Of a stretch of 64,000 nucleotides of DNA, positions 260-20,469 are shown piece by piece. The stretch lies in IMG/VR virus record IMGVR_UViG_3300033998_000455. One strand, given 5' to 3'. Numbering within the stretch: the first letter of the stretch is position 1; each line of letters starts with the position of its first letter. Source of the DNA: an uncultured virus (IMG/VR IMGVR_UViG_3300033998_000455). Lineage: Duplodnaviria; Heunggongvirae; Uroviricota; Caudoviricetes. Under the pieces are notes generated by a model, which did no database searches, was not told where the DNA came from, and was given only the letters and a program-made list of their open reading frames with translations. Position numbers and translations under genes: made by a program.

Positions 260-3200
260 TTACTTTCTTACTTGCCTTGAGATTCCAAAAATCAAATTGA
301 AGTTGATGATGTTATTAGGGTGAACAATCCCATTTTCAATGACTCTTTTAAAGATGTCGCCGCGATAGGAAGTGGACTTGATATCACCAAGATTCTCTAA
401 TTCATTTAAAAACCAGTTTTTCTCGCTCACAAGAAATTTGTATTCATCTTCCTTATCTACTAACCTATTTATTTTCTCTTGTGTTTCCATTATTGAATCC
501 GTATATCTCTTAATCTCAGTGGTATCCTCTCCTTTTTTCCCACCCTCTTCTACTACTTTGTACAACTCCAGATATTTCTTTTGGTTTTCTTCTTCTAAGA
601 AGACCAATAGTTGTTTTTCTTCTTCAGATATTTTCTTCATTCCAATATGCTCGTTTAAGAGGGCCTCAAAAGACTGGTCATTTTTAAGACCAAATAGCAA
701 ATCCATGAATAGCGACATGATATCTTCTTCCTCAATTTTCAGTGTATCACAAGATACTAACGGGTTTTTCTTCAGTGCTGCCTTACATCGCCAGTGATGT
801 TTAGTGCTCACTTTATTTTTCACGGCTACATGAAAATACACACTCCCACATTCTGAACAGATAAAACTAGAAAAGAACTCTCGCTTATCATGCAGTCCAT
901 TCGTTTTATCACTTTTCTTAGGTCTTCTTTTAGCTAATTCATTTTGGGCTCTTTCCCATGTAATCCTGTCTATGATTGCAGGATGATGATCTTCAATCAA
1001 AACCTGTGAAGCATCTCCAAAATTCAACTTTGATCTACTGGTAAATGTATCTTTTGTATATCGCTTTTGATAAAGAAGATCCCCAGTATAGGTTGGATTA
1101 TTTAAGATAGTGCTTATAGTTTTACTGTTCCATGAGGATTTCTTTTTCATTGTGGGGATCCCTTCATGGGTTAAATCTCTACTTATCTGAGCTCCGTTAA
1201 CTCCTGCGATACATCTTTCAAATATTGACCTTACTACGTTTGCTTCTTCTTCAACAATATACCAACTTCGATCTTTATTAAAATTATAACCGTATGTTCT
1301 CATGCTATGTCCAACGACACCACGTTTTGCATATGCCTTTTTCCCCCATGATATGCTTTCTCCTAAGCTTCTTGATTCTTCTTGGGCAAGGGCACAATAT
1401 ACAGTTAATAATACCTCCCCATCTTCATTGGCAGTATCTATCTCTTCTTTCTCAAAATAAATGGAAACATTATATTCTTTGAGCTTTCTGACATACTCAA
1501 GGGCATCAACAGTATTTCTTGCAAATCTTGAAATAGACTTTGTAATGATCCGGTCAATTTTACCATTCTCGCAATCTTTAATCATCTTCTGAAATCCTGA
1601 TCTCTTTTTTGCATTAGTCCCTGATACTCCTTTATCAGCATAGATTCTAACTAACTGGTTATTAGGATCTTTTAGAACTGAAAATGTATAGTAAGCAACC
1701 TGCGCTTCTAGTGATCCAATCTGATCAGGTTCTCTCGTGCTAACTCTTGCATACACACCAATCTTAATCTTCTTCTTTTTCTTAACAGGTTCTATTTTGA
1801 AGATGCCCGATGGGCTGTCTTTATACTTCTTTTTAATCTGTTGTATTAGTTCAAGTCTTTGATTATTTTGAGCCTTTAAAACTTCCACCTCATCGTTCCT
1901 CCTCTCTGGTTGATAACATATTGTATTCTCGCTTTTTCCCGATTTAACGGGGATTATTTTATTTTCTTGTTCTATCTCTATCCCTGATTTTTTCTTTTTG
2001 TAGTTGCTGGGTTCTATGCATTTCTTGTGGTGGAGTTGAATAAAGTCTCCAAATTCAGTAACCGAATTATCTAGCCAGAGGACTTGAAAATCTTTTTCTG
2101 TCAGTATCGATATACTCATAACAAAGGCTCGTAACATCGAAATGTCGGCCATTTCAATAAAGTCTTTTAGAAATTTTATGCCTTGCAATTTTTCTAAAGT
2201 TTCCATCCTAAAAGCTCGATCTTCTTCTATCTTAGAGGCCAAGTCTTCAAAGTCTACAATGTTCTTTTCAAGTTCTATTATTTTCTTATTCATAACTTCC
2301 TGGTTGCTTTCATCAGCTAGAGTCAACTCCTCTTTTGCCAAAATCAATCTCATCAGGTGACTCATTCTGTGTAGTTCGAATCTATCATTTTGGTTCACCT
2401 TCTCAATGTCATCCCTCATTCGCTTCAAAGCACCTGGCTGGTCAAAAGAATATCGATACTTCATGGCGCTCATCATCATTTCGATTAACTTTGACTCGCT
2501 CAATGGTGATGAACTACAGTAACTAGAATGTTTATCCTTTCGTCCGCATTTCCATTTATGAACTTTCCTCTCTTTTCTATGTTGATAATTCGACCCACAA
2601 TAAGCGCAGGTGATTCTTTTTGTTAGTGGGTAAACCTTATTCGGACTTTTTCTATTTTTCTTTTTTGCATCAATAATGGACTGTACTTCGTTAAATGTCT
2701 CCTCATCAATGATAGCTGGATGTGTGTTCATTATATAGTAACGATTTTCTTGACCTTCATTTATTACAGTTCTGCTCTCTAAAAATATGTTGGTAACCTT
2801 ATTTGTAAACCTATTACCCGTAAAATTATGATTCGTGAGCAAGTGCTTTACACTCGTGCAATCCCAAACATCTCTCCCTAACGGTCTCTTAATACCTTTT
2901 TCTGTAAGCATTAATGCAATTTGATAGGTAGAAGTGCCCTCCAGAAATAGTCTAAAAATTCTCATGATCACTTCCGCTTCTTCTTCAACTATTCTAAAGG
3001 TCTTCTCTCCATCAATTTCAACAACCCTGTAGCCATATTGATTCAGAAAAACAGGTCTTCCCATTTTATTTCTTTTCTCAACACCCCATTTAATTTGTTC
3101 GGAAATCGTCAAGGCTTCTTGCTGAGAAACTGCTGCCAAAGCTGTTAGAAAGAATTTATTACGCGTTTTTAATGAATCGATTTTTTCTTTCTCAAATATT

Positions 3201-3583
3201 ACAGCTACATTGTTTTCTTTCAATAGTTCTACGGTTTCTAGTAGCTCTTTTGCATTTCTGGAGAATCTTGAAATACTCTTCGTAAGCACTACATCTATCC
3301 GTTGTTCCAAGCAATGCCTTATGAGCCTTTTAAGACCTGGTCGTTTATCTATCGTTAATCCTGAAATGCCACTATCATAATATATACCGACTAACTTATA
3401 TTCAGGGTTCTTCAGAATATAAGTTGAGTAGTAATCCATCTGATTCTGTAAAGAACTTAATTTAGTATCATCAGCAATATGGCTAATACGACAATAAGCT
3501 GCAACTCTTATCTTGCCACCATTTTGTTTAACTGGCTCTTCCTTCGCTGAAGGCCACAGCACTTCAACCGATTTTCTTGCCAC
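260..3583 (-). CDS. Double-headed large serine recombinase (two resolvase + recombinase + Zn-ribbon units fused), 1107 aa
   Basis: Two catalytic motifs (AAYCRIS and GVYARVS), two TKSISRF(S/A)RN motifs, two HPAII motifs and two CxxCG Zn ribbons. Confidence 0.92.
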   Translation of the reverse strand: MARKSVEVLWPSAKEEPVKQNGGKIRVAAYCRISHIADDTKLSSLQNQMDYYSTYILKNPEYKLVGIYYDSGISGLTIDKRPGLKRLIRHCLEQRIDVVLTKSISRFSRNAKELLETVELLKENNVAVIFEKEKIDSLKTRNKFFLTALAAVSQQEALTISEQIKWGVEKRNKMGRPVFLNQYGYRVVEIDGEKTFRIVEEEAEVIMRIFRLFLEGTSTYQIALMLTEKGIKRPLGRDVWDCTSVKHLLTNHNFTGNRFTNKVTNIFLESRTVINEGQENRYYIMNTHPAIIDEETFNEVQSIIDAKKKNRKSPNKVYPLTKRITCAYCGSNYQHRKERKVHKWKCGRKDKHSSYCSSSPLSESKLIEMMMSAMKYRYSFDQPGALKRMRDDIEKVNQNDRFELHRMSHLMRLILAKEELTLADESNQEVMNKKIIELEKNIVDFEDLASKIEEDRAFRMETLEKLQGIKFLKDFIEMADISMLRAFVMSISILTEKDFQVLWLDNSVTEFGDFIQLHHKKCIEPSNYKKKKSGIEIEQENKIIPVKSGKSENTICYQPERRNDEVEVLKAQNNQRLELIQQIKKKYKDSPSGIFKIEPVKKKKKIKIGVYARVSTREPDQIGSLEAQVAYYTFSVLKDPNNQLVRIYADKGVSGTNAKKRSGFQKMIKDCENGKIDRIITKSISRFARNTVDALEYVRKLKEYNVSIYFEKEEIDTANEDGEVLLTVYCALAQEESRSLGESISWGKKAYAKRGVVGHSMRTYGYNFNKDRSWYIVEEEANVVRSIFERCIAGVNGAQISRDLTHEGIPTMKKKSSWNSKTISTILNNPTYTGDLLYQKRYTKDTFTSRSKLNFGDASQVLIEDHHPAIIDRITWERAQNELAKRRPKKSDKTNGLHDKREFFSSFICSECGSVYFHVAVKNKVSTKHHWRCKAALKKNPLVSCDTLKIEEEDIMSLFMDLLFGLKNDQSFEALLNEHIGMKKISEEEKQLLVFLEEENQKKYLELYKVVEEGGKKGEDTTEIKRYTDSIMETQEKINRLVDKEDEYKFLVSEKNWFLNELENLGDIKSTSYRGDIFKRVIENGIVHPNNIINFNLIFGISRQVRK

Positions 3584-3635
3584 AATAAAAACTCCTTTCT
3601 CTAGAGCTAACCTACTAATTTGCAGGTATGTTATT

Positions 3636-3663
3636 AATGGCTCTAGTCCAGAGATAATGCAAG
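3636..3663 (-). promoter_or_regulatory. CTTG-N16-GAG promoter-like motif (divergent copy) upstream of the 1107-aa LSR
   Basis: Minus strand CTTGCATTATCTCTGGACTAGAGCCATT; same 16-nt spacing as six other copies. Confidence 0.5.
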
Positions 3664-3738
3664 TACTATCTCTGAAATGAAAGAAGTTCTGGATTCAATT
3701 GATGATATTGGGTTTCCTATTTCTTTGCCTAAATGTTA

Positions 3739-4660
3739 CTACTCAGCTTTTTTACTCCTCTGTGGTCTTCTTCTTGCGTTTACTTCATATGAAACGCCGC
3801 ATTTTAGTTGAAACTCTACTCGCCATTTATTGTAGACGATTCCCTTCTCAATGACTTTGGTTAGGATGTCCGGATCAAAGTCTTCATCAGGTCCTTTGAT
3901 TTTTCCGAGGACTTCAATTAGGATTTTCAGATTCTCTTCAAGGTATTCACTTTCCTTTTTGTTCTCACTCAGCCCATCATACTCCATTTGAAGTATCTCT
4001 TGTTCGTATATCAAGTGCCTCATAGTCGCCTCGTAAATGGTCTCATTTGACCCTGATGATCTCGTAGCCATCGCAGTAATTTTATCTGTGATCCTATCGA
4101 TTTGGGTGCCCAGCTCATTTAGCCTTCTGTCTTCTTCCTCTGTTAATGAGGCTTCTTCAATGGCCAGCTCCACATCTTCAATCAGTTTAGCCTCATCCCT
4201 TTTTATGTCGAAGAGAAGCTTCATGAAGGCCCGCTCTAGTTCTTCCTCCCAGACATAACTGCATTTGCAGTCTTTAAAATTTGGATCTCTTTTGGAAGCA
4301 ACTCTACAGTGCCAAGCCGTGAACTTCACAGGTGCTCTATCCTCTCCACAGTGAGTGGTGAGCCGTCTTCTGGTGACTGGTCTTCCACACTCTCCGCAAA
4401 AGAGTTTATTTGAAAAAGGCGCTGCCCCGCTATAAGCCATGTTGTATTTATTGTCTGGATCCCTAAACATCTTACTACGTCTATTCAGCTCTTCTTGTAC
4501 CTTTTCCCAATCTTCCTCGTTAATGATCGCTGGATGGTGATTTCTAATATAGTACTGCGGCTGATGCTCTTTATTTCTCACTCGCTCATGGGTCAGAAAA
4601 TCTACCGTCACGGTCTTTTGTGCTAGACAATCACCTTTGTATTTTTCATTCGAAGTGATA
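3739..4660 (-). pseudogene. 5'-truncated large serine recombinase (C-terminal recombinase/Zn-ribbon/coiled-coil part; catalytic domain missing)
   Basis: From SNEKYKGDCLAQKTVTVDFL onward it closely parallels the 555-aa LSR at 12208-13875. Upstream sequence is AT-rich non-coding, and the called start (4683) is not homologous. Confidence 0.85.
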
Positions 4661-4730
4661 CGAGATGGATAAAAACACAACATATTGTGCTTTAAAATGT
4701 ATTTAAGTTACAATAAATACAATATGTAAT
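4645..4730. other. Putative att junction (prophage end)
   Basis: Abrupt switch from recombinase coding sequence to non-coding DNA; adjacent inverted repeat acatattgt (4680-4688) / acaatatgt (4719-4727). Confidence 0.5.
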
Positions 4731-4999
4731 TTTTTCGGTATCTGTAAGGATAAAAAAAAGCCCATTTCAGTTAAGAAATGAGCTCTCTTGAAAAATTCCT
4801 TCTATTATATTGTTACTCAGTTGATTAGTTAAAAAGTTCGAGAATCTATTCTAGTAATTTCCATTTTTGATGATACTCAAAAAATCGAGCCTTCAAATTG
4901 GCCTGTGTCGGATTTTTATTTAGTTTAGGACCTGTTGCTTAACTTCGAGCTATATCGCCAGAAATCGAAAACCTGTCAAGTTTCCTTAGAAAAACAAAA

Positions 5000-5061
5000 A
5001 ACCACCAAGATTCGCTCTAAGTCCGGGACTGATGCCGAGCCTAGATTCTATCTTGGTGGTT
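5000..5061 (-). terminator. Hairpin downstream of the Lamassu operon
   Basis: Perfect 12-bp arms aaccaccaagat / atcttggtggtt with an adjacent A-run on the + strand. Confidence 0.6.
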
Positions 5062-5099: not shown

Positions 5100-6836
5100 T
5101 TAGTCTTCATTAATATCAATAGTAATGCCTAAAAGTTTTTCTGATTCATGATCATCTGTAAGAGTTAATACAATATTGTCATTTACAATTTTCTGGAAGA
5201 GTTCTGGCTCCATACACTCTTTAATTTCATTAAGCTGGTTTTGATTTACGGTAGCTATATACTGCTTTCTTGAGTCCCAAAATTCTTCAAATACAATCTT
5301 AAACAACTCGGCTTTCTGTCTTTCGTCAATACCATCAAATAATCTACTATCATGAAACAGAAAATCAATATTATGATTTTGACCTTTAAATAGTAGTGTC
5401 ATGTCATAACAAAAGATTTTAACATTATTTATTCCATCTGAGTTGTCAGACTCAATTTTTGCATCAATATTGTATCTTTGAAGATTCTCTCCGTCGTTAT
5501 TACTAACTGATAATCCTGCAACAGCATTTGGATAAAATCGCTTTGCTAAACCTCTAAAATAATCTCTTAACACATTAATTTCAGCCTCAATTTCAGCAAG
5601 AAAATTCTCTGCTGTTTCTGATTGTTCAAGTTGAATTTTCTCTGCATCACGTAGCTTTTCTTTATACTCTGATTGAAGGGATTGATATTTCTTTAAGCTT
5701 TCTAGTTTTGTCTTCAAATGAGCACTCTTATCACTAAGTGATAAAAATACATCAAGGGCTTGATGGTCTCCAAGATACTTCATTAAACGATCAAGTTCAC
5801 TTTTTAATCTATTTGCTACCTCAGATTTAGCTGCAATCTCTGATTCAAATTTATTTTTTTGTTCAAGAAGTCTTTTCTTCCTGTTTGTAACTAACTTCTC
5901 ATAGAATCTTTCTAAGTCGTTAAGAGTCTTTTTTAGATTTTCAGTAAAATGCACGTTCGCTTCTTCATATACTTTTGCAATATCATCCTGATTAGTCTTT
6001 GTTTCCATATTCAAACTCTTATTTACAGACTCAATATTGTTTTGAATCAGAATTATTTTATTATTTAGCGCAAATAATTCATTCTCTATCCTATCTGCTT
6101 CTTTTTGCACATCCCGGTAGTCTTCCGCAACCTTAAAGTTGCTAAGATTTCTTTCCAATTTCTCGATTTGTTCTTCCAAATCAACAATAGTCAATGCAAC
6201 ATCTTTATTACCCGTAAAGAAATCTCTTAGCAATTCATCATTTTTGAAATTGCCTTCTAAAGTTTTAATTCTATCTTGTTCTTTTCTGATGTTATATTTT
6301 TTCTGAGCTAGAAAAACATCAAGACCTAAAAGAAATGCATTATATAGCATTGTCTGATACTGATTATAGCTACCTGAAGCGCCGTTAAAATCGACGTACC
6401 ACTTTTTATTTGGTCTTATGAAAAACGGGAATAGGGATCTAAAGCTTAAATGTGAGATATCATCTGGTATATTAAAACATATAGACTCCATTTTAGAATT
6501 AAATTTTGCTAGTGTTAGTTCTTCATCATTCAGTACGATCCTATTTGGGTTTTCTGTCGTTCTCTTCGATGTATATTCTATTCCCCCGATAGAAAAATCC
6601 AAATAAAACTCCCAACCAGGGAGCTTGTTACAAAAGGATGTGTAATTTTTCTTTTTCGATCCCATGCAAAAATGGATTATATTGACCAATAGAGATTTTC
6701 CTACACCATTATAAGTTTTCCCATTATTTTTATTATCAGGATTTTTCTGTTTGGCAACAATGAAACTTAATCCTGTTTTATTAAATTCTACAGTTCTAAA
6801 GCTAGATTTATTGGCATAAACCTTTTTTAATTGCAT
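5100..6836 (-). CDS. lmuB: Lamassu / ABC-three-component SMC-like ABC ATPase (DUF2326-type, LmuB-like)
   Basis: Walker A NGVGKS, long coiled coil, SDG signature and FLFHDS Walker B variant; third gene of a three-gene operon. Confidence 0.8.
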   Translation of the reverse strand: MQLKKVYANKSSFRTVEFNKTGLSFIVAKQKNPDNKNNGKTYNGVGKSLLVNIIHFCMGSKKKNYTSFCNKLPGWEFYLDFSIGGIEYTSKRTTENPNRIVLNDEELTLAKFNSKMESICFNIPDDISHLSFRSLFPFFIRPNKKWYVDFNGASGSYNQYQTMLYNAFLLGLDVFLAQKKYNIRKEQDRIKTLEGNFKNDELLRDFFTGNKDVALTIVDLEEQIEKLERNLSNFKVAEDYRDVQKEADRIENELFALNNKIILIQNNIESVNKSLNMETKTNQDDIAKVYEEANVHFTENLKKTLNDLERFYEKLVTNRKKRLLEQKNKFESEIAAKSEVANRLKSELDRLMKYLGDHQALDVFLSLSDKSAHLKTKLESLKKYQSLQSEYKEKLRDAEKIQLEQSETAENFLAEIEAEINVLRDYFRGLAKRFYPNAVAGLSVSNNDGENLQRYNIDAKIESDNSDGINNVKIFCYDMTLLFKGQNHNIDFLFHDSRLFDGIDERQKAELFKIVFEEFWDSRKQYIATVNQNQLNEIKECMEPELFQKIVNDNIVLTLTDDHESEKLLGITIDINED

Positions 6837-7069
6837 CTTATAACACCCCCATCTTTTTCTTCAACTACTCCAATAGAGTGAAGAAATACAAGAGTGAGTA
6901 ACAAATTGTCAAAACTATGTTTTGCAGAAAATTGATTCTTAGATAAATCATTTTGATATTCGTTCCATAAAGAATCTATAGTTTTTATGGAATCAATTTT
7001 CCCTAATAAATATGCGCCAAAACCTAACAAGGATTCTGAAAAATGGGTATGTTTAGTTGGTATTATCAT
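6827..7069 (-). CDS. lmuC: ABC-three-component middle component (LmuC-like), 80 aa
   Basis: MIIPTKH...SLLGFG...LLLTLVFLHSIG pattern; overlaps both neighbouring genes. Confidence 0.72.
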   Translation of the reverse strand: MIIPTKHTHFSESLLGFGAYLLGKIDSIKTIDSLWNEYQNDLSKNQFSAKHSFDNLLLTLVFLHSIGVVEEKDGGVIRCN

Positions 7070-7977
7070 TCTTCTCCCTCCTTAATAGGTTCTTCAAAAA
7101 TATCACAAGTTTCAAAATACTTAGACATTATAATTATGACTGTTGTCTGATATATTTGTTGCACTTTGGGACTTAAACGATTAACAATATTCCAAAACAG
7201 CTCATCTGCGACGTATCTTTCTTTTTCTTGATGGTAAATCTCACTTAATTTATCCCTTAGAGAATCTGCAACAAAATTACTATTGTTTGATAGAAATTCC
7301 TCTAAATATACTACCTTTAAAAGACCGTTATATAAATACTCAGCGGTAACATCTGACAACCCATTAAATTGAATCTTTTCATCCAGATCAGGAAGCGTAA
7401 TGCTATACTCTTTATTATTATCTATAGGTAACTCCATAATGTAAGAAATTACTTCATTTAGTATAGAAAAATCTACGTTCTTTAAGTTATTTGGATCTGG
7501 TAGATATCCGATAATAGAAAAAATTTGGTCATCTTCTAAGGAAAATATTGTGTTTTCTAGATCTTTGGCAGTTAGTATCTTAGCATCCCTTAAGTTATGT
7601 GTTTCTTTTAAGCCCTGAATAATCTGCTCACAGTCAGCATTAACACCGTTGTATTTATCGTTTACAACAAAATAAAAATTATCAACTGGAGACCATTGTT
7701 CAATCAATCCCGAAAAATCTCTATTAATTTTCTTAACAAGCTCCACATAAGACTTAGTAATCTCTTCTGGAGCATATACTTGGAAATATGTACCTTCACT
7801 CTTTATATACCCATCATTTTTCCGGTCTCCAATATTTCCCCAAGGTTTTATTGCTTGGAATCCAGGATGCGCATAATACATTGTTTGAGTAAAGATATCT
7901 TCAAATGCTTGCCCATTTGCTTTAAATATTTTGTTTTGAAATTGCAATCTTGCAATACTACGCTCTTGAGCATTCAT
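7066..7977 (-). CDS. lmuA: Lamassu/ABC-3C effector: N-terminal PD-(D/E)xK-like nuclease plus conserved C-terminal domain (LmuA-like)
   Basis: FE...GDRKNDG...FQVYAP nuclease-like core; C-terminal YFETCDIFE. Start moved to MNAQ (7977), which follows a GGGAGG RBS. Confidence 0.75.
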   Translation of the reverse strand: MNAQERSIARLQFQNKIFKANGQAFEDIFTQTMYYAHPGFQAIKPWGNIGDRKNDGYIKSEGTYFQVYAPEEITKSYVELVKKINRDFSGLIEQWSPVDNFYFVVNDKYNGVNADCEQIIQGLKETHNLRDAKILTAKDLENTIFSLEDDQIFSIIGYLPDPNNLKNVDFSILNEVISYIMELPIDNNKEYSITLPDLDEKIQFNGLSDVTAEYLYNGLLKVVYLEEFLSNNSNFVADSLRDKLSEIYHQEKERYVADELFWNIVNRLSPKVQQIYQTTVIIIMSKYFETCDIFEEPIKEGEE

Positions 7978-8060
7978 CAAGTCAATCCTCCCCAAAAAAT
8001 TCTTATCATTACCATTATAGAACAAATCTATTTGTTTGTAACCCATTTTCTAAATTAATT

Positions 8061-8109: not shown

Positions 8110-11100
8110 TTACTCCGTATAGTACTTCTGATCATGGCTGTAGATGAATTCTGGAATCGTCCGCTTTAGTCTCTCCATTTCAACCAGTGGATTGATTATC
8201 GTTGTCCTGAAATGTTCAATTGTCATCACGCCTCCCATGAATTCTAACATCTCATGGCTAGTTCTAGGCGTTCTACAATACTTCATAAGCTTTTTTATTT
8301 CCGGGCCGTTTAAAAAATCTAGTCGCTTCAAGAAGTTCTCAAGCTTTCTACGCTTGGTGATGAGCCTTTTATAATTCTCATAGGTTATTGGTGCGGACCA
8401 TCCAAGTCCGACTTTCAGCGTGAATGTAATTGCCCCATCTCTATTGATTATGGCAGATTCAATCAGCCTTTCAAATAAGTCTTTGTTAAAGCTCGCTTCT
8501 TCTACCTTAAGACCCGTATCTAAAATGTTTGCAGGCAGCAGTTCTTTTCCATACCTGGTTTGATCGAACCCTTGAAAATCCACTCTTCGCTTCTTCCCTA
8601 AAAGATCTTGAAGTTTGTAACTTTTAAAGAACCACTCCATTTCTGATTGTAGATGTTGTTGCCGCTCTCTTTTTTCGGTGTAGATCTTTAGGTGTTCCTG
8701 AATGGCCACAATCTTGCTCGTTAGCATGTCAATCCGCTGTGAGTCTCTTCCCTTTTTATTAAGCTCCTCATCTACCGCTTCATAAAGCTTTTGATACAAC
8801 GCATTCATTTCATCGATCAGCTGCTTTTCATTACTCAGTTCTTCTTCACTTACCTCAAGCTCATCTATTTTCTTTTCATAGTATGTTCTGAATTCTGGAT
8901 TTGAGATCATTTCAATCAGCAGATGCTGAAAATTAATTTCCAGGTATTCTTGATTGAACTGTTTAACGTCACATACCTGAAGCATATTCTGCAGGCCATA
9001 ACCACATCGCCAAAATAATGTCGCGCTTGATTTTTCTTTGGTCCTTTTCCTCTCAATTTCACCTGTTGTATCGTCACGTTTCTGAATTCGTTTTTTATTC
9101 ATATATCGTCCAAACCCTACTGTACTTCCACACTCTCCACACTTGAATTTGTCAGTAAACACTTCATTTTTCACTTCTTCTTTTTCAAAACTCAGATGCA
9201 CTCTTTTCATGCTCTTTAGTCGGTCAGCTCTCATTTGTTGCACTTCTTCCCATACATCCTTCTCAATAATTGCTGGGTGATGATCTTCTATGTGAATCAT
9301 GGGAATCTCTCCCCGGTTTGGTACAAGTGGTTGCTTGCGGTCCGGATTTTTGTACTTTTGATTGTGAATATAATCTCCTTTATAAACAACGTTATCCAGG
9401 ATGTTCTTAATAGAGGAATTGCTCCAAAGTCCTGAGCCACTTGGTGGAACGATTCCCTCGTCATTAAGGCTTTTATAGATATCTGCTCGTCTCACCCCAT
9501 TCAAGTAATCCGTATAAATGCGCCTAACAATGGCAGCTTCCTCTTCTTTGATGACCCACTCTTTCTTCTCATTGTATTCATACCCATAGTTAAGCCTTCT
9601 TGGCCTTACAATCCCTCTACTGGCCAGCGCTCGTTTGCCCCAAGAGATGGAGCTTCCAATATTTCTACTCTCCTGCTGCGCTAAGGCCCCCATCAGGCTG
9701 ACTATCAGCTCGCTGGTATCATCTTCTGTTGATATATTTTCTTTTTCGAAAAATATAAATGTCGGTGACTCTAACTCTCTCAAAATCCTTACATACTTAA
9801 TCGCATCTAAAGTATTTCGACTAAAGCGAGACAACGATTTTGTCAGGATCAAATCTATTTTTCCTGATTTGCAATCAGTGATCATTCTATTGAAGCCTTC
9901 TCGGTGCTTTGTTGAAGTTCCAGTGATGCCTTCATCTACATAGATGCCGGCAAACTGATACTTGGGGTTTTTAAGGATGGCGTAGGTATAAAAAGCGATT
10001 TGGGTTTTCAGACTTGTTTCTTGCTCTTCTTTATCCGTCGACACTCGAACGTAGGCAGCGACCTTTAGCTTCTTCATATTTTCAATCTTTGGATGGTTAT
10101 TGTCTTTTACATTTTTATAGATGCGACTCATCAACTGCATGTGTTGCTGATGATCGATCTGTGTTACTTGAGGTAATGCCACATCGGTTTCCTCCTCTCT
10201 GTCATATTTTTCGATGACTTCATCAAGATGAAGATGCTCTGTTTTTTCTATACGATTATCTTTAGTATCTGATACATATGAAGCTCTTGATATTAAGTCT
10301 TTTGTAGTTAGTGCCTTGGTCTCTCTTTCATTAGCATGAAATGCTTCAGACCCGGTAATGAGTTTCGTTCTCTCTATTTTTTCGTTCCTTGTTTTTCGGA
10401 AGTCCTCAGCTTCCCTTTTCCTGAGTTCAACATCACCCATTTGGGTTTCACTGCCATTAATCCAGTGAATCGTATAATCTTCATGAGTATAAATGGTCAC
10501 AGAAACAATCCAGGCTCTCATTAGCTCCAGGGTTAACTCTGTTAAAAACTCTACTGAATTCTTTCCTTCACTAAGCCAGTCAAGAGCCATGTTCCGGTAT
10601 TTCCTATCGTCCTCTATCTGATTGATTTTCTCTTCAAATTCTCCATATTGCTTACGCATATCTTCTACATCTTCTATAGTAAATCGGGATCCGACAAGAT
10701 GCTCAGCAATCTCAATTTCCGTTAAGTATTTGAGCCGATGAAACTCAAAGTGGTCATTCTTGTTTACCCTCTCTAATATTTTCTCCAGCTCTTTTACAGT
10801 TCTGTCACTTCCAAAATCAAACCATTCTTCAAAACCGCTTTGAAGGATATCGCGCATAACTTCTTCTCTGATATAGCTTGTAGGACACAGCTCCTTATGC
10901 CCCACACGTAATTTACAGCCCCAATACGCTGCTTTCACTCGGTCTGTCGTTCTATAATGGATATTACCACAGTAGCCACAAATAATCCGTCCTGCAAAAG
11001 GGCTGATCGTCTTTTCTGAAGCCGTCGTTTTATTTGGTCTGTTTTCCTCAATAAGCTTTTGCACTTTCTCGAAGGTTTCCAAATCAATGATCGGTGGGTT

Positions 11101-12045
11101 TGCATTTTCAATTAGAATCTTATCTCTCATGCCCTCTGATGACCTAACCCTGTTCGTCATAAGATCCTTGTTTGTAGTTCTACCGATGTAATTTCCTGTG
11201 TAAATCGACAGGGTTAATATTTTTTTTACTGATGAAATATTCCATGTATCCAGTCCTCTAGGCGTTTTGATACCACTAAGAGTCAATGCTCTCATGATGT
11301 CTGTTTGAGATTTGCCACTGAGGTATTCTTTGTAAATCCAGCGGACAACTTCTGCTTCTTCGTTGATAATTCTAAGCTCTGATCTTCTAGAGTCTTTAAC
11401 AAGTTCATATCCATAGGTCTTCTGGAAATAGGGCCTTCCACTTAGTAACCTTTGTTCCACTCCCCACTTGCCTAGTTCTGACATAGCTTCTATTTCAGCT
11501 TGAGATAGGCTTCCGTAGGTTGATAATAAAAATGTATTATAATCGATGGACGTGTCGATTCGTTCTTTCTCGAAATACACCCCCACCCCGTGTTCTTTTA
11601 ACTCTTCGACGGCTTCTAGGAGCTCTTTCGTGTTCCTAGAGAACCGTTGTACACTTTTTGTGATGATTAAGTCTAGTTTTCCTTCCTCGGCATGGCGCAG
11701 CATTCTTCTGAAACTGCGTCTATCCTTTATTGTTCTGCCAGAAATATTATCATCAAAATAAATTCCGACAAATTTCCAGTTAGGTTTATTCCGAATTAGT
11801 TCGGTATAATGGCTCATCTGATTTTGAAGCGATCTTCCTCTTTTATTAGGTGTTGGACTCACTCTACAATAAGCAGCTACCCTTACTTCATCATCCGTTC
11901 TTTCAAGCGGACTTTTCCTCATTTCATCTAAAGGATTCCATAGTGTTTGAACCCACTGCCTTGTCTCATTGGGATTCAGGTTTTCAGTTTCACCCAATTG
12001 ATATACGGTTGCTTTACTTTCAGCATCATCTGATGTTTTGCCCAT
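8110..12045 (-). CDS. Double-headed large serine recombinase with a C-terminal winged-helix-like extension, 1311 aa
   Basis: AAYCRVS and AAYVRVS catalytic motifs, two TKSxxRFSRN motifs, two Zn ribbons; extra tail PRTSHEML...HFR...PLV...TIP...QKY. Confidence 0.92.
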   Translation of the reverse strand: MGKTSDDAESKATVYQLGETENLNPNETRQWVQTLWNPLDEMRKSPLERTDDEVRVAAYCRVSPTPNKRGRSLQNQMSHYTELIRNKPNWKFVGIYFDDNISGRTIKDRRSFRRMLRHAEEGKLDLIITKSVQRFSRNTKELLEAVEELKEHGVGVYFEKERIDTSIDYNTFLLSTYGSLSQAEIEAMSELGKWGVEQRLLSGRPYFQKTYGYELVKDSRRSELRIINEEAEVVRWIYKEYLSGKSQTDIMRALTLSGIKTPRGLDTWNISSVKKILTLSIYTGNYIGRTTNKDLMTNRVRSSEGMRDKILIENANPPIIDLETFEKVQKLIEENRPNKTTASEKTISPFAGRIICGYCGNIHYRTTDRVKAAYWGCKLRVGHKELCPTSYIREEVMRDILQSGFEEWFDFGSDRTVKELEKILERVNKNDHFEFHRLKYLTEIEIAEHLVGSRFTIEDVEDMRKQYGEFEEKINQIEDDRKYRNMALDWLSEGKNSVEFLTELTLELMRAWIVSVTIYTHEDYTIHWINGSETQMGDVELRKREAEDFRKTRNEKIERTKLITGSEAFHANERETKALTTKDLISRASYVSDTKDNRIEKTEHLHLDEVIEKYDREEETDVALPQVTQIDHQQHMQLMSRIYKNVKDNNHPKIENMKKLKVAAYVRVSTDKEEQETSLKTQIAFYTYAILKNPKYQFAGIYVDEGITGTSTKHREGFNRMITDCKSGKIDLILTKSLSRFSRNTLDAIKYVRILRELESPTFIFFEKENISTEDDTSELIVSLMGALAQQESRNIGSSISWGKRALASRGIVRPRRLNYGYEYNEKKEWVIKEEEAAIVRRIYTDYLNGVRRADIYKSLNDEGIVPPSGSGLWSNSSIKNILDNVVYKGDYIHNQKYKNPDRKQPLVPNRGEIPMIHIEDHHPAIIEKDVWEEVQQMRADRLKSMKRVHLSFEKEEVKNEVFTDKFKCGECGSTVGFGRYMNKKRIQKRDDTTGEIERKRTKEKSSATLFWRCGYGLQNMLQVCDVKQFNQEYLEINFQHLLIEMISNPEFRTYYEKKIDELEVSEEELSNEKQLIDEMNALYQKLYEAVDEELNKKGRDSQRIDMLTSKIVAIQEHLKIYTEKRERQQHLQSEMEWFFKSYKLQDLLGKKRRVDFQGFDQTRYGKELLPANILDTGLKVEEASFNKDLFERLIESAIINRDGAITFTLKVGLGWSAPITYENYKRLITKRRKLENFLKRLDFLNGPEIKKLMKYCRTPRTSHEMLEFMGGVMTIEHFRTTIINPLVEMERLKRTIPEFIYSHDQKYYTE

Positions 12046-12089: not shown

Positions 12090-12118
12090 TGTTCACTCTG
12101 TACAGGATATAATGCAAG
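12090..12118 (-). promoter_or_regulatory. CTTG-N16-GAGTGA promoter-like motif upstream of the 1311-aa LSR
   Basis: Minus strand CTTGCATTATATCCTGTACAGAGTGAAC. Confidence 0.6.
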
Positions 12119-12207
12119 TACTTTATCCTGATTGAGGGAGTTTTCATCTTTCTATGTTAGACGCCTACAATATTAAGGCGTTAGTATTCATGATTTACTT
12201 CAGCTTC

Positions 12208-13875
12208 CTACATGTATTCTTTACGGTCAGCGCTGATGCTTCTTTTGATACTGCATTTAAAATGGAAATCGACCTGGTGATTATCATGCACGATACCTTT
12301 TTCTACGGTCTTTACAAAAATATCTTCTCGAAAACCATCGTCATCGCCCAAGTCACCCAAACTCTCAATGAACTCTTCTAACTGTTTCTTTATAAATATG
12401 CTTTCAGTTTCCATCTTGCTTAAATTTTCATACTCGAGCTGAATGATTTCTTGCTCGTAAATCATGTGTCGCATAGTTGCGTCATAAACAGGATCACTTG
12501 TCGCTGATTCTCTCGCTGCCAAATCACTGATTCGATTTGTAATATGTTCAAGTTTCGTTTCAAGTTCGATCAGTTTTTCTTTCTCCGATTCTGTAAGTGC
12601 ATAGTCTTCACTGGCAAGTCGCGCTTCTCGAATCACTTCATCACGATCTTCATTCATCTCATGGAGAATTTTCATAAAGGCTTTTTCTAATACTTCTTCC
12701 CATACATAACTCGCATTACATTTAATGCCTTTGTCTATATCCCTATGGGCCGCCACTCGGCAGTGCCATGTTGTGAAGTGGTACTTTTCGCCATTTTTCG
12801 ATGAAGTCATTCGCCTGCGTGTTACAGGCCTGCCACAATGCCCGCAAAACAATATATTGGAAAATACGGATTTCCCGCTATATGTCATCTTATATTTTTT
12901 CTCGGGATTTCTTAGCATATCGTTTCTTCTTATGAGTTCCTTTTGTACCTTATCCCAATCTTCTTTTGAGATAATTGCAGGATGGTGATTTTGAATGTAA
13001 TATTTCGGTTTATGGTCTTTGTTTGGAACTCTTTTATGGCTTAAAAAGTCTATTGTTACCGTTTTTTGAGCCACACAGTCCCCCGTATATTTTTCTTGGA
13101 TTAATATTTTTCGAATGGAATCACTGGTCCAGGTTTTCTTACCTCTTGCTGTTAAAACACCGTCTCGCATCAGTCCTTTAGCAATTCTTGCCGTTCCTTT
13201 TCCTTCTAAAAACTCTCTGAATATCCGTCTCACAACTTCTGCTTCCTCTTCTAGAATAACAATCTTTCCATCATCATTCGTATCGTACCCTAAAAAGTAT
13301 GTGGTTGGAATATGGGGTTTCCCTTGAGAGAAACGCTTCGTCACACCCCAGGTAGCATTCATGCTCAATGATTTTGATTCTTCCTGCGCGAGGGAACTTA
13401 AAATCGTCAAAAATAATTCTGATTTCGAATCAAGTGTGTCCAGGTTTTCCTTCTCAAAAAATACGCCCACCTGCGGATCTAAGTTCTTCAATAACCTTAC
13501 ATAGCTTAAACAATCAAGGGTGTTTCGAGCGAATCGGCTGATGGATTTTGTTAGAATGTAATCTATTTTTCCCGCTTTAGCATCTTCAATCATCTCCAGA
13601 AATCCCGTTCTGTTCTTTGTATTTGTACCAGTGATGCCCTCATCCGTGTATATTTTATACAGCTCCCACGCTGGGTTTTTATTTATATAGTCCGTATAAT
13701 ACGAAACCTGAAGTTCATAAGATGATGCTTGATGTTCAAGCAAAGTCGATACACGCGCATAGGCCGCAATCCTTTTTTTGCGTCCATCATGATGTTCATC
13801 ACTTCTTCCTGTCCTGCTGACTACTGGTATAATGCGGACTTTAGGGTTCATGCTTGTTGATAGATTGGTTTGCAT
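12208..13875 (-). CDS. Large serine recombinase (LSR-B), 555 aa
   Basis: AAYARVS, TKSISRFARN, HHPAII, CGHCG Zn ribbon, coiled coil. Confidence 0.93.
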   Translation of the reverse strand: MQTNLSTSMNPKVRIIPVVSRTGRSDEHHDGRKKRIAAYARVSTLLEHQASSYELQVSYYTDYINKNPAWELYKIYTDEGITGTNTKNRTGFLEMIEDAKAGKIDYILTKSISRFARNTLDCLSYVRLLKNLDPQVGVFFEKENLDTLDSKSELFLTILSSLAQEESKSLSMNATWGVTKRFSQGKPHIPTTYFLGYDTNDDGKIVILEEEAEVVRRIFREFLEGKGTARIAKGLMRDGVLTARGKKTWTSDSIRKILIQEKYTGDCVAQKTVTIDFLSHKRVPNKDHKPKYYIQNHHPAIISKEDWDKVQKELIRRNDMLRNPEKKYKMTYSGKSVFSNILFCGHCGRPVTRRRMTSSKNGEKYHFTTWHCRVAAHRDIDKGIKCNASYVWEEVLEKAFMKILHEMNEDRDEVIREARLASEDYALTESEKEKLIELETKLEHITNRISDLAARESATSDPVYDATMRHMIYEQEIIQLEYENLSKMETESIFIKKQLEEFIESLGDLGDDDGFREDIFVKTVEKGIVHDNHQVDFHFKCSIKRSISADRKEYM

Positions 13876-13877
13876 AA

Positions 13878-15569
13878 TCAGTCTTCTCCTTTCTCAATTT
13901 TCACTTCTTTTATATCTCCATTCGCCCAATATAAAAGCAGCGTTCCTTTGTCTGTATAAGTCATTCTGATAAACCATGCTCTTAGAAACCTAGTATCTTC
14001 AGATAATTTATTCATCCCCTGCACAATTTTGGTTCCACTTTTTATTTTTTCTAATGACTTTATAGCTTCTTCCCTGTACTCAGCATCCTTATCGATAAAC
14101 TCCCATAGATGCCTTTTAGATTCTAATTGTTTCTCAACTTGAATCCGTTGTTCTTTGAATGTTGACTCATCACGAAGTTCCATAATCGCTCTATTTTCAT
14201 CCACCAAAGCTTTTTCTAATGACAGTCTTAGCCAACTTTGCTCTGACTCTCGATTTAACTCAATATTCTTAAGCTCTTTTATTAAATGTATGACAAGTTT
14301 TTTGTTTACACTGGTGCCATCCTCCAGATACTTCCTAGTGAACTCACTTTTTAGAGTCCTCACAATATCTAGTTCATCAATCGCTTCCATTTCGCAAAGT
14401 AATTTACTCTTAAGACTGCTCGAACATCGCCATAATACTTTCTTTCTTCCCGCATATCGATGGTAGTTCTTCCCGCAGCACCCACACTTGATTCTGCTAG
14501 TAAACTCATTTACGCTCTTTTTCTTTCTATCGTACATGACTGATTTTTTCTCAAGAATTCTCTGCACTCTGTCAAAGACTTTCCTGTCAACAATTGGTTC
14601 ATGATGATCGCTTATATAGTACTGAGGTCTTTCTCCATTGTTTACTTTGGTTTCATGTGTTAGGTAATCTTTCGTGTAAGTCTTTTGACAAAGAGCATCA
14701 CCTACATAACGCTCATTACTTAAGATGCTTTTAATATTTGAATCTTTCCAGTCGATACGACCATTTGGTTTTTTATAGCCTTTTCTTATGAATTCTCTGG
14801 CTATTTCAATAAGGCTGCAACCTTCTAAATACAAATCATAAGTCTCTCTTACAATCTTAGCTTCCTCAAAATCAATGGTATAGGGTACACCATTTACTTT
14901 TTTATAACCCAGAATCCTTGTGAATAAAGGCTTTCCACTTGAGAACCTTTTTGTATGAGCCCAGGTTAGATTTTCTGAAATCATCCTGCTTTCTTCTTGC
15001 GCGACTACCGATAACAGGGTCAGAATAAATTCACTCTCCATACTTCCTGTATCAACAGATTCCTTCTCAAAGATGACCCTAATTCCATTTTCTTTGAGCA
15101 CTCTAATTGCTTCTAATGTGTCCATTACATTTCTCGCAAATCTCGAGATAGACTTACATAAAATCAAATCAATATTCCCTTCCAAGGCATGTCGCATCAT
15201 CTTATTGAATCCCGCTCTATGAGCTCTTTTGGTTCCAGACTTACCCCGGTCCGAGTAGATGCCCACAAACATCCATTCTGCGTTATTTCTAATGTAGTTC
15301 GTGTAATGGATTGTTTGGTTTTCAAGGGAATTCATTTGCATTTCTTCTTCTGTACTCACTCGACAATATGCACAGACTCTTAGTCTCTCAGGTTCTTCCT
15401 TAATATTAGTTGTTGATGTCATTTGAGATTTCATCCCAATTTCAATGACTTGTCTCTCTTGGGATTGAAAATCGATGCTGTCATAGAACCCACTTTCATA
15501 CAACGATCCAGACATATTCTTCCTCCTTCCTTTATCCTTTTTCAACCTGACCACCTTTTTGTTTATCAA
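13878..15569 (-). CDS. Large serine recombinase (LSR-A), up to 563 aa (true start probably downstream, near MSGS)
   Basis: CAYCRVS, CKSISRFARN, HHEPIV, CGCCG Zn ribbon. Confidence 0.92.
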   Translation of the reverse strand: MINKKVVRLKKDKGRRKNMSGSLYESGFYDSIDFQSQERQVIEIGMKSQMTSTTNIKEEPERLRVCAYCRVSTEEEMQMNSLENQTIHYTNYIRNNAEWMFVGIYSDRGKSGTKRAHRAGFNKMMRHALEGNIDLILCKSISRFARNVMDTLEAIRVLKENGIRVIFEKESVDTGSMESEFILTLLSVVAQEESRMISENLTWAHTKRFSSGKPLFTRILGYKKVNGVPYTIDFEEAKIVRETYDLYLEGCSLIEIAREFIRKGYKKPNGRIDWKDSNIKSILSNERYVGDALCQKTYTKDYLTHETKVNNGERPQYYISDHHEPIVDRKVFDRVQRILEKKSVMYDRKKKSVNEFTSRIKCGCCGKNYHRYAGRKKVLWRCSSSLKSKLLCEMEAIDELDIVRTLKSEFTRKYLEDGTSVNKKLVIHLIKELKNIELNRESEQSWLRLSLEKALVDENRAIMELRDESTFKEQRIQVEKQLESKRHLWEFIDKDAEYREEAIKSLEKIKSGTKIVQGMNKLSEDTRFLRAWFIRMTYTDKGTLLLYWANGDIKEVKIEKGED

Positions 15570-15746: not shown

Positions 15747-16727
15747 CTAATCATATTTCATGTAGGCATCAAATCCCGCCTTCTTTAGTCGGGTCATAAG
15801 GGCTTCCGCATTCTTCTTGTCACTGAAGGCCCCTACCTGCACTCGGTAGTATTTATTGCCAGATTCCTTCTCCGGTTCAGCCTCCACACCAGCACTGACC
15901 ATCTCAAGATTATCTTTATCAACCCAAGTCATAATGCCAGCTTTTTCATCCATGGTGCTTTTCAGAATGGTTTTGCCTAGAAGGACACATTCCTTGCCTC
16001 CTTTGATCACAGGTTTTCCATTAAACACATCCTGGGTGATCAGGTGATAATTCCACTTCACCCAGTTTGGAATAATAGGACCGCCTGGATAATAGGTTCT
16101 GGAAGACGCTTTGATTTCAACGATATCACCCGCTTCAAAACCCTCTTTACCTTCACCTGCAGTCTGTAGTGCTTTCTTTACTGCAGCTCTAAAGGTATCC
16201 ATATTCTCTCCATGCTTTGGAAACCAATGGCCCACATCAGAATGGTTAGATGCAATTCCTTTCTTGTTTCCTTCTGCATGGCTGATGATATCTTTTTCAG
16301 TCAGACCGTACTCACTGCAAAGGGAGACACAAAGGTTCACTGCATTCTTCCAGGCTGCCCTAAAGTAGGGTTCATTTTTCTTCACATCATAGCCTACCAT
16401 CTGATTGTTAGAATAAGAAAAACCACCCGGTTCGCATATCTCAAAACCGATGTGGGTATTATTAGCATCTCCACCTGCATGCCAGCCCCTATGATTCCAA
16501 GGCAGGTACTGCCAGATTTCTTTGTCATCCAGGAAGGCATGTACACAAACCTGACGGTTGATTTCACCAGCCCTATAGGACTTGTTCCACCGACTAAACC
16601 AACCTTCTGCCATTACTCCCGGTGTGGCAGTGGAATGAACCATGATGCCTTTAGGTGTGATCTTTCTCCCGGCTGTATAACAATCATTTCTGGTCATGTA
16701 CTTAGTTTTTAAATTACTTAGTGCCAT
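15747..16727 (-). CDS. Endolysin: N-acetylmuramoyl-L-alanine amidase (Amidase_2) with C-terminal SPOR domain
   Basis: IMVHST, WHAG, IGFEICE, SH...SNHSD; C-terminal YRVQVGAFS...LKKAGFDAY. Start at MALSN after GGAGG. Confidence 0.92.
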   Translation of the reverse strand: MALSNLKTKYMTRNDCYTAGRKITPKGIMVHSTATPGVMAEGWFSRWNKSYRAGEINRQVCVHAFLDDKEIWQYLPWNHRGWHAGGDANNTHIGFEICEPGGFSYSNNQMVGYDVKKNEPYFRAAWKNAVNLCVSLCSEYGLTEKDIISHAEGNKKGIASNHSDVGHWFPKHGENMDTFRAAVKKALQTAGEGKEGFEAGDIVEIKASSRTYYPGGPIIPNWVKWNYHLITQDVFNGKPVIKGGKECVLLGKTILKSTMDEKAGIMTWVDKDNLEMVSAGVEAEPEKESGNKYYRVQVGAFSDKKNAEALMTRLKKAGFDAYMKYD

Positions 16728-16742
16728 CCTTATCGCCTCCAT
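16714..16742. repeat. 29-bp imperfect direct repeat (partner at 18895-18923)
   Basis: ttacttagtgccatccttatcgcctccat vs ttatttacttccatccttatcgcctccat; 26/29 identical. Confidence 0.85.
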
Positions 16743-16800
16743 TAAATTTTAAGCACAAAAAAAGACACTCTTTTTGAGTGCCTTCCTGCTATTTGTTCTT

Positions 16801-17427
16801 TTATAAATCTCCGCTATCTTCCAAAACTTCTCTAAGAAATTCGTGAATGGAAAAGTCGGGATTCGAGTAAATTGTTGTATTTCCAATCTTTGTACCATCA
16901 GCTTTTACTTTACTCTTACGGATTGTTTCCGCCCTTCTAATTGCTGATTTTACATCTTCCAAGGTTACCTGACTTAGTATCTTATTAATGACTTCTTCGT
17001 TCTTTATATCCTCAGTAGATTTCAACCCAAAGATTCTTCGAACATCTGAGATATAAGCATCGTTTCTTGAAACGCTCTTATTGTAGTCCTCTTTATGAAG
17101 GATCAACCATAAATCAAAATTCACACTGCTGTATGCATGATAGATGTGCCTGCCCTCTTTTCTTTTTGATGGTCTAAGCTTTTTGTTCAGCGAATCACAG
17201 ATTTCAATATTTCTCTTGAACTCCACATCGTTATGGTCAAAATCAAATACTGCAGCACTGTCATAGTTCTCATATCTTTTTTCAAGTCGATGTGGTAAAT
17301 CCTCAAAGGTATTAAACTTAACCACTTTCCTTGGAAAATCTTTAATCAGCTTAGCCACATGACTCAGATACATTGTTTCCTGCTGTCCATCACAAATGCA
17401 TAAATATGCTTTTCTATAGTTTGCCAT
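16801..17427 (-). CDS. rloB: RloB-family (TOPRIM-like, AbiLii-like) protein
   Basis: CDGQQETMY, VFDFD and YSSVNFDLWLILH motifs; paired with an upstream AAA ATPase. Confidence 0.8.
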   Translation of the reverse strand: MANYRKAYLCICDGQQETMYLSHVAKLIKDFPRKVVKFNTFEDLPHRLEKRYENYDSAAVFDFDHNDVEFKRNIEICDSLNKKLRPSKRKEGRHIYHAYSSVNFDLWLILHKEDYNKSVSRNDAYISDVRRIFGLKSTEDIKNEEVINKILSQVTLEDVKSAIRRAETIRKSKVKADGTKIGNTTIYSNPDFSIHEFLREVLEDSGDL

Positions 17428-18733: not shown

Positions 18734-18771
18734 TGTAAAACCTCCTCAATTAGGATTTCGTTAGTAGTTTT

Positions 18772-18800
18772 ATTATACCCCAAAGAGAAGGTTTTTACAA
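18772..18800 (-). promoter_or_regulatory. Sigma-A promoter of the ATPase-RloB moron
   Basis: TTGTAA-17 nt-TATAAT on the minus strand. Confidence 0.65.
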
Positions 18801-18894
18801 CTTTACTTGAGGTTTTTTCTCAAGTTTGTCTTGTTTTTAGAGTTATAAGTCTTCCTATTGTCCTTTTATGTCGATTAAAGACATATAATTCGTT

Positions 18895-19311
18895 TTATTT
18901 ACTTCCATCCTTATCGCCTCCATCTTTTAGCTGCTCTAGGATGTCTTTGAGCTTCTCTGGGATAGGCAGTCCAAGTCTTGATGCATTTTCAATGATGCTA
19001 ATCCCTTCATTGGACAGATAAAAGAAAATCACTGCTGTTCTAATTGCACTACCATCTCCGATAATGTTCTGATCAATGATGTGCGCCACACCTACTAGGG
19101 AGAAAATCACTACTTTCTTGAAAATCCCCTTAGCACCTACATCGCTGGATAAGTGCTTTTCTAGCACAGCACACATGACCCCAAGCAAATAGTCGATCAC
19201 CACGAAGGCAATCAAAGCATACAAAAACCCATCATAACCTCCCAAAAAGTAACCCAACCAACCGCCCACAGCTGCAAATATCATCTGAACAATGTTCCAA
19301 ATTTCTCTCAT
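18895..19311 (-). CDS. Phage holin (Phage_holin_4 type)
   Basis: Hydrophobic segments; DYLLG, SS..GAKGIFKK, NEGISIIEN..RLGLPIP. Confidence 0.92.
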   Translation of the reverse strand: MREIWNIVQMIFAAVGGWLGYFLGGYDGFLYALIAFVVIDYLLGVMCAVLEKHLSSDVGAKGIFKKVVIFSLVGVAHIIDQNIIGDGSAIRTAVIFFYLSNEGISIIENASRLGLPIPEKLKDILEQLKDGGDKDGSK

Positions 19312-19380
19312 TGTTTTTCCCTCACTTTCATAAATTGTTGTATATAAAAAGACGCCCGGTGAAGGACGTCATAGTTTTCA

Positions 19381-20454: not shown

Positions 20455-20469
20455 GGATTCAGCCCTCCT

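Follow-up and report, generated by a model that had tools for sequence, protein, structure and literature searches.

The 64,000-nucleotide stretch examined here (the window), recorded in IMG/VR as the uncultured Caudoviricetes virus IMGVR_UViG_3300033998_000455, raises the question of why a tailed prophage would possess two genes that each encode two large serine recombinase (LSR) units fused in one polypeptide. The genes, D1 (1107 amino acids, aa) and D2 (1311 aa), are both real in the list of open reading frames (ORFs) and are 4,527 bp apart; read along the minus strand, the amidase gene is followed by LSR-A, LSR-B, D2, an ABC-3C cluster, the remnant of a second LSR-B gene (B'), and D1. The initial annotation regarded D1 and D2 as two diverged copies and saw in them a conserved, selected fusion. 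The second part of that proposal stands, with 50 of 52 distinct relatives fused and under purifying selection, but the first does not: the junction at position 4650, the tree of recombinase units, and contigs from other studies indicate that D1 and D2 are orthologues from two related prophages, the outer of which is integrated into the LSR-B gene of the inner at position 4650. The window would thus have two copies because one virus inserted into the neighboring recombinase gene of a related virus.

The junction at position 4650

Up to position 4650 the window is 100% identical to contig L001 and 99.98% identical to contig L002, both of which have an intact A'-B'-D1 module; D1 is 100% identical in the two and lies behind intact A' and B' genes. 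Beyond 4650 the window switches to a noncoding stretch common to D2-type phages. Intact B' continues at this position in L001 to L003, L065, and L145 and in runs X2, X4, and X12 from three other studies, and homology in a Youngiibacter fragilis contig likewise runs into an intact B' there. The end of identity at 4650, together with the intact B' elsewhere, indicates that D1 belongs to the resident prophage and that the D2 phage interrupted this resident's B gene. The same junction position recurs in L004 and L005, where the arm variants differ and a different B gene is involved, and read depth is flat across 4650 in X1. What had been called an LSR-B paralogue ahead of D1 is indeed B-gene sequence, although it is only the 3' half of a gene, has no Resolvase domain, and is cut exactly at 4650. 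The resulting layout is as follows.

260..3583, minus strand: D1, fused tandem LSR of 1107 aa with a GTG start, in the inner (resident) prophage (ORF list, Pfam, BLASTP, AlphaFold); N-terminal unit DN at about aa 24-515, disordered linker at about aa 519-602, C-terminal unit DC at about aa 603-1107
1886..1906, minus strand: Shine-Dalgarno (SD) sequence and in-frame GTG (codon 566, 1886-1888) in the D1 linker, from which a stand-alone DC of 542 aa is predicted to be translated
3630..3675, minus strand: promoter-like motif of D1, with a TTGCAT -35 box near 3665 and a putative function
3739..4650, minus strand: 3' remnant of the inner prophage's LSR-B', from the middle of the Recombinase domain onward and without the catalytic domain, within a 314-aa ORF (3739-4683)
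4651..4675, minus strand: attachment arm of the outer prophage, in which 15 nt separate the TTTTTATCC motif and the crossover; the junction at 4650/4651 is of attR type
4676..5061, minus strand: right end of the outer prophage, conserved and noncoding (75-88% identity in L004, L005, and L009), with a hairpin near 4986-5065
5100..8046, minus strand: cargo of the outer prophage, a three-gene ABC-3C system (CTD10, MC6, DUF2326 ATPase; PADLOC PDC-M68, weak Lamassu matches)
8110..12045, minus strand: D2, fused tandem LSR of 1311 aa, in the outer prophage
10180..10199, minus strand: SD sequence and in-frame GTG (codon 622, 10180-10182) in the D2 linker
12090..12130, minus strand: promoter-like motif of D2
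12208..13875, minus strand: LSR-B, 555 aa, sister clade of DC and the gene class that insertions strike most
13878..15569, minus strand: LSR-A, 563 aa as listed, sister clade of DN (an alternative start 18 codons later has a better ribosome-binding site)
15747..59603, minus strand: body of the outer prophage (amidase, holin, tail, capsid, portal, terminase, helicase, primase, polymerase)

The promoter motif described earlier as shared by both genes is found ahead of D1 (position 3665) and D2 (12120) as well as in relatives; a promoter of its own would keep D1 expressible once B' is cut. Copies of TTTTTATCC / GGATAAA are also found immediately ahead of the A and D2 promoter-like boxes (15,640-15,700 and 12,120-12,135, minus strand) and are possible autoregulation sites. 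A long imperfect hairpin follows D1 (window 1-170) and is common to other D loci.

A conserved fusion with an internal start

Pfam identified two Resolvase and two Recombinase stretches in each protein, bearing out the two-unit architecture first proposed; each unit is ordered Resolvase, Recombinase, and zinc ribbon, with two zinc-ribbon stretches in D1 and one above threshold in D2. The proteins are diverged but related, as had been stated (BLASTP, 34% identity over 1211 columns, with both quoted motif pairs found), and the N-halves of D resemble A while the C-halves resemble B. The catalytic serine, the preceding Tyr/Arg, and the two downstream arginines are invariant in 32/32 DN and 32/32 DC units, and eight zinc cysteines, four per unit, are invariant in 47/47 fused proteins; DN has drifted at the residue after the catalytic serine, at the following glutamine, and in the E-helix. 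DUF4368 was absent from A, B, D1, and D2 at E <= 0.01 (Pfam). An AlphaFold model of D1 built from 47 sequences (mean pLDDT 77, pTM 0.48) shows both units complete, joined by a linker at 519-602 that is modeled with low confidence, and its best Foldseek matches are serine integrases, the closest solved relatives being Clostridioides difficile 3g13 and YokA 9dxh. None of the 15 solved chains matched has two LSR units, and the longest (620 aa) is a fusion of an integrase with a recombination directionality factor (RDF). On this basis D1 consists of two complete LSR units in one chain, with putative recombination activity. D2-type proteins have in addition an extra C-terminal domain (window 8110-8400, D2 aa 1216-1311) with a sub-threshold match to Fic-like_C (PF21247); it is under purifying selection, and D1-type proteins are without it.

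To count split as well as fused forms, we queried with the tail of the N-half alone and counted all loci gathered by then. The 160 instances comprised 146 fused, 3 frame-split, 1 without DC, and 10 cut by contig or locus ends; at 90% identity, 50 of 52 distinct relatives were fused and 2 were split. Both unfused exceptions are recent lesions, a one-base loss after the internal start in L047 and an 8-base duplication in L212. The instance without the second unit (L158) has a deletion into the cargo (about 5387-7590) that joins DN in frame to the ABC-3C CTD10 gene. Length-limited searches, to which split forms are invisible, gave 5 and 49 protein clusters, with Anaerotalea, Proteiniclasticum, Proteinivorax, Clostridium, and Desulfitispora as named isolates among the fused clusters. 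A profile search of 1.84 billion representatives returned 40 matches at E <= 1e-10; these include additional fused proteins that are more distant, two single-unit A-like proteins, and two whose sequence stops in the linker. The distant fused tandem LSRs (P0070, P0072, P0073, P0078, P0079, P0082, and P0083; 1066-1193 aa) diverge basally in the DN and DC groups. A whole-protein scan of genome contigs was swamped by ordinary LSRs, with 3/80 loci passing the D-tail filter and a fourth, L065, ending inside DN; 0/385 records of a plasmid collection cover 80% of D2, and 1/616 records of a phage collection did so for D1.

The initial annotation had named stops or frameshifts in the linker as grounds for doubt; contigs from three other studies span the D1 linker without an indel (X2 1-3811, X12 125-3599, X4 1721-2892), and an assembly frameshift was rejected. 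Ratios of nonsynonymous to synonymous substitution rates (dN/dS), computed per half against relatives, indicate purifying selection on both DN and DC: 0.02-0.11 in both halves for D2 versus L005 and L007, and 0.09-0.15 for D1 versus L003 (comparisons of D1 with L010 and L011 were saturated). The linker ranged from 0.33 to 0.40, with one value of 0.83 on few changes. Because 50/52 relatives are fused, catalytic residues are kept in both halves, and dN/dS is low, we conclude from the sequences that the fusion is selected rather than accidental.

In a quick maximum-likelihood tree of 108 units, four position classes were recovered, with supports of 98 for (A,DN) and 95 for (B,DC); B has the shortest branches, and D1 and D2 fall in separate deep branches. 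This topology fits one old duplication of an A-B gene pair followed by one fusion; on this tree, D is the second A-B pair that arose in that duplication, now fused. The possible objection that unrelated LSRs had fused independently was rejected; the tree does not contradict a single origin.

The same purine run lies 9-10 bases before an in-frame GTG in the linkers of both proteins, although the frame in which it is read differs between D1 and D2, and across relatives the linker SD sequence is read in all three frames. For the SD analysis we used a window of 40 codons, 36-75 before the second catalytic tyrosine, and the pairing energy with the anti-SD sequence (dG, in kcal/mol). An in-frame start with dG <= -7 was present in 44/50 relatives and with dG <= -10 in 34/50, compared with 70/1222 and 6/1222, respectively, in other in-frame windows and 20/100 and 14/100 out of frame in the same linker window. 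The start codon is ATG in 18 cases, GTG in 15, and TTG in 11. In the 44 linkers for which a start was called, 20-86 codons precede it, and the other two frames are stopped in 88/88 cases. In L212 the fusion is lost and the internal start is retained. A conserved internal SD sequence and start imply that the second unit is probably also made alone, i.e., that D is probably made as full-length DN-DC plus DC alone.

Attachment arms, targets, and cassette stacks

Across the family, 5'-cut recombinase genes are preceded by the TTTTTATCC motif, 15 bases from the junction. The arm pattern had 91 matches on the phage strand, 7 on the opposite strand, and 11 in shuffles (1.7 Mb); an arm scan gave 17 loci, with 5 true arms. 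Seven loci have full sites with the motif inverted on the other side, with spacers of 15 and 16 and a core of GA (5) or GC (2), and these may be circle junctions or tandem insertions. Arm and full sites match the LI attP, whose zinc-domain motif occupies bp 16-24 (PMC3783163), and the arm, judged by its sequence, has attP geometry.

The first arm downstream of D adjoins, in 39 distinct junctions, a B gene in 15, DN in 4, DC in 3 (one doubtful), A in none, a full site in 7, and other sequence in 10, although this count is biased toward stacks, as each D is a query match, and under-samples host junctions at trimmed provirus ends. Recombinase genes were thus struck in 21-22/39 junctions, at many positions, and the ten other targets are phage promoters and genes, comM, and a capsule gene. 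In three loci (L017 at 20795, L150 at 15277, and L213 at 18102), arms are joined inside a phage promoter-like motif, GAGTGATATAT, related to the motif before A and D; in L183 the target is an S-adenosylmethionine synthetase gene. L017 also contains four short LSR genes in a row (3010-11206) followed by a 5'-cut B gene without the arm motif, a different element that also landed in B. In genome G003 a B gene is split, with both halves present, by an unrelated 14-kb element with a tyrosine-integrase-like gene (L247, G003:C2 11,065-25,345), in the same codon region that the serine system strikes. No target consensus emerged across 30 junctions.

Between D and the arm lie 1-5 cargo genes; the cargo identified in the window (ABC-3C) and in L002 (AbiE), the two cases to which this classification applies, is antiphage defense. 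The 10.8-kb contig L002 has an 11-base terminal repeat (10536-10793 and 1-260). Its sequence can be closed into a circle on which holin and amidase genes are followed by A', B', D1, AbiE, and an arm; the arm meets the sequence upstream of the holin gene at a junction also present in L145. It is either a small excised circle or a nested insertion collapsed in assembly.

Cultured isolates have stacks of up to six such cassettes. In Robertmurraya beringensis contig G004:C50, one A-B-D module is followed by six arms, along with three further D frames that are uninterrupted and two D genes that are cut, each with 1-3 cargo genes; the four uncut D proteins are 36-51% identical. G005, G002, and G001 are similar. 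In 4/5 stack records we did not find a 5' half for the cut B genes, which is weak evidence because these comprise three drafts and two trimmed proviruses, and in G002:C4 a single phage body lies ahead of the stack. Excision from the farthest arm would explain both the missing B 5' halves and the single phage body.

The body of the outer phage matches "Ca. Heliusvirales" record PV036459.1 in nucleotide blocks of 72-86% identity (85% in the terminase region), and this record also encodes A, B, and a 1277-aa D, all three annotated as hypothetical. By Pfam, eight functions (TerL, portal, capsid, Clp protease, polymerase, helicase, exonuclease, and single-stranded DNA-binding protein) match the nine markers of "Ca. 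Heliusvirales", the scan having left out the nuclease ORF.

The other end of the element points to capsule loci. Five of the seven full sites are followed by capsule or exopolysaccharide genes, as read from the sequence by eye, and the other two by homologues of one such gene; a sugar-dehydratase gene fragment lies at the left end of PV036459.1. In three Bacillaceae isolates the phage left end abuts a capsule-type operon, and tandem att-like repeats with the right-hand arm precede the variable part. These repeats (short left arm, GA core, and right-hand arm; G002:C4 79,750-81,300, G003:C2 76,050-78,000, and G004:C55 54,400-58,300) sit between conserved head genes and the variable cassette that ends at the phage left end. 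On the simplest reading, the right-hand arm would be one end of an element that includes a capsule cassette and then the phage body, with the arm that follows D as its other end, and phage-linked capsule swapping is possible. A right-hand-arm scan of viral contigs found no complete circle with a capsule cassette; of its 4 matches, two were loci already known and two arose by chance in an unrelated phage.

The outer phage contains further defense genes, namely, an AbiL pair (16801-18733), an AbiE pair (24044-25473), and AbiH (60095-61828), the last in a region flanked by a 29-base direct repeat (59982-60010 / 63237-63265). It also has an S-adenosylmethionine synthetase gene (52220-53440), upstream of two DNA methyltransferase genes.

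A proposed mechanism and known systems

We consider it fairly probable, taken as a whole, that these observations reflect a natural tandem LSR with two products, acting in mixed dimers, together with nested insertion and carried stacks. The A, B, and D module closes the genome of a temperate Bacillota phage lineage, with D probably transcribed from its own promoter and yielding DN-DC and DC alone, as their conservation suggests. The four units would most likely act as mixed dimers rather than homotetramers: A and B, which evolve slowly, would pair on the conserved phage arms, and the loosely specified partner DNA would be bound by the DN-DC chain, a fast-evolving tethered heterodimer. The phage end is joined, as the junction sequences show, to many targets, most often the B or D gene of a related resident. 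Insertion removes the resident's B and leaves its D, cargo, and arm downstream, and later excision from the farthest arm would carry this remnant along, producing a stack of units, each a cut recombinase gene, D, cargo, and arm. The window represents one such step, an outer phage with D2 and ABC-3C followed by an inner remnant with D1.

Several points weigh against this reading. Serine recombinases need a matching core, the crossover dinucleotide, in both partners. A standard enzyme would need G before the junction, and yet only 12/30 intact target homologues have it (CG in 4/30), and the dinucleotide that follows the arm has 11 different forms among 50 strings; although a target homologue is not always the true allele, core mismatches are still seen at 99-100% identity. 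As G is shared by only 12/30, the matched-core rule is not evidently obeyed, and some junctions may not be direct recombination products. Junctions were seen singly, and both junctions of one event are needed to place the true crossover. In the run that may be the source, the bridging contig overlaps 4650 by only 30 letters, and the left end of the outer phage lies outside the window; a search for it gave 4 loci, with no recombinase 5' half in the 2 that have long upstream flanks. Support for the whole DC side is only 47 in the quick-method tree (98 for 28/32 rows), the SD window was picked after the data had been seen, its out-of-frame matches at dG <= -10 are those given above, and the junction count has the bias toward stacks already described.

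A more far-reaching version is possible but doubtful: A, B, DN, and DC would form a four-subunit synapse, one subunit per half-site, that tolerates mismatches, attacks the recombinase genes of rivals, disarms the resident, captures its D and defense cargo as a growing array, and moves a capsule cassette at the other end. It is unlikely that there are instead two systems, with A and B serving a primary GA-core capsule site and D or free DC acting as a relaxed recombinase that inserts into residents; D does have its own promoter and two full catalytic units, and the GA core is present in five of the seven full sites and lacking from many recombinase-gene insertions, but the same arm is used in both kinds of junction, and no D is without a preceding B or recombinase remnant where the flank can be read.

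We think it quite unlikely that D is a directionality factor, such that A and B integrate, DN-DC or free DC swaps subunits for excision, and the ratio of long to short product is the switch. No RDF-like ORF of at least 60 aa lies on the coding strand between the three genes (the rest of the phage was not searched for an RDF), D is separately transcribable, and the drift of DN beside the serine, at the glutamine, and in the E-helix would fit a specialized partner; the core catalytic residues and zinc cysteines, however, are all kept in both units. An incidental fusion, in which coupled genes lost a stop, only the internally started DC matters, and read-through is tolerated, is very improbable. 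The strong conservation of the internal start, the higher dN/dS of the linker than of the domains, and L212, with the start kept and the fusion gone, are in its favor, but DN can be produced only within the fusion and is under purifying selection, and in 50/52 lineages no stop interrupts the reading frame across linkers of 20-86 codons, while the other frames always close. An assembly artifact or a simple tandem duplication in one phage is hardly credible, even though the window is a metagenome assembly and the lysis regions of related phages are 87-95% identical, as the same junction occurs in L004 and L005 with different arms and partners, depth is flat over 4650 in X1, stacks occur in cultured isolates, and D1 and D2 fall in separate deep branches; duplication within one phage was rejected.

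A chain in which two units are naturally joined, and from which a second product starts internally, would reveal the arrangement of mixed subunits, and the tandem LSR is a ready scaffold for asymmetric target sites. The predicted substrates (the arm, the full site, and about 30 targets) make the system testable at once. Further, the nesting of insertions points to a way in which temperate phages could disable competitors and gather defense genes, and the link to capsule loci suggests that these phages may reshape cell surface genes.

We came across no account in the open-access literature of fused tandem LSRs or of recombinase genes as insertion targets, although the supplements of the "Ca. 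Heliusvirales" and Durrant reports may list such genes. The main text of the former uses neither the word "recombinase" nor "integrase", and a common "DNA invertase" cluster is all that it names (PMC11283538), the quality filter of the latter, 400-650 aa, leaves out proteins of D length (PMC10083194), and "double-headed" in PMC10754689 describes arrows rather than a fused recombinase.

In the serine integrases characterized so far, a single protein in four copies acts on two sites whose cores match. Each unit described here shares with phage LSRs (SPbeta SprA/YokA, A118/LI, Bxb1, and phiC31) the catalytic, recombinase, and zinc-ribbon domains and the coiled-coil insertion. Those systems rely on a single gene whose product works as a homotetramer, together with a small RDF and a matched 2-bp core, whereas here there are four units in three genes, two of them in one chain with an internal start. 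Similarly, the canonical phage integrase is a single gene adjoining attP, and here three genes and 1-5 cargo genes precede the arm. Integrons combine the tyrosine recombinase IntI with attC cassettes, in contrast to the serine enzymes and double-strand attP-type arms of the present stacks, for which they are an analogy only.

CcrA and CcrB of SCCmec are paired diverged LSRs in one operon, like A-B and DN-DC. SCCmec-type cassettes accrete in tandem, and we know of no fusion or internal start in CcrA/CcrB. Their pairing is reported to be relaxed, e.g., attP x attP (PMC3783163); they are described, however, as two separate genes of a nonphage element with the fixed target rlmH (PMC13739063), unlike the phage body and varied targets seen here (recombinase genes, phage genes, comM, and capsule genes). 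The integrase triplets of streptococcal integrative and conjugative elements form clades by module position through successive duplications, with repeats of 2-8 bp, and position-specific clades are found here too; some triplets insert into mobile-element genes such as traG, but in the passages that describe them they are three separate genes with no fused pair, and the targets given are mutT, traG, and hsdM rather than recombinase genes (PMC4701971). Multitargeting LSRs (Durrant et al. 2022) likewise have many diverse targets for one family but keep the core dinucleotide, in a clade marked by DUF4368 (PMC10083194), neither of which holds for the D family. Phage endolysins (CTP1L) and SpaO provide precedents for one ORF yielding a full-length and a C-terminal product (PMC9430671, PMC4777826); these proteins are not recombinases, and the short product described for them is a binding domain, whereas DC would be a complete catalytic unit. 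Against this background, the new features are the internal start, nesting as the origin of the two copies, and an attP-like arm joined into recombinase genes.

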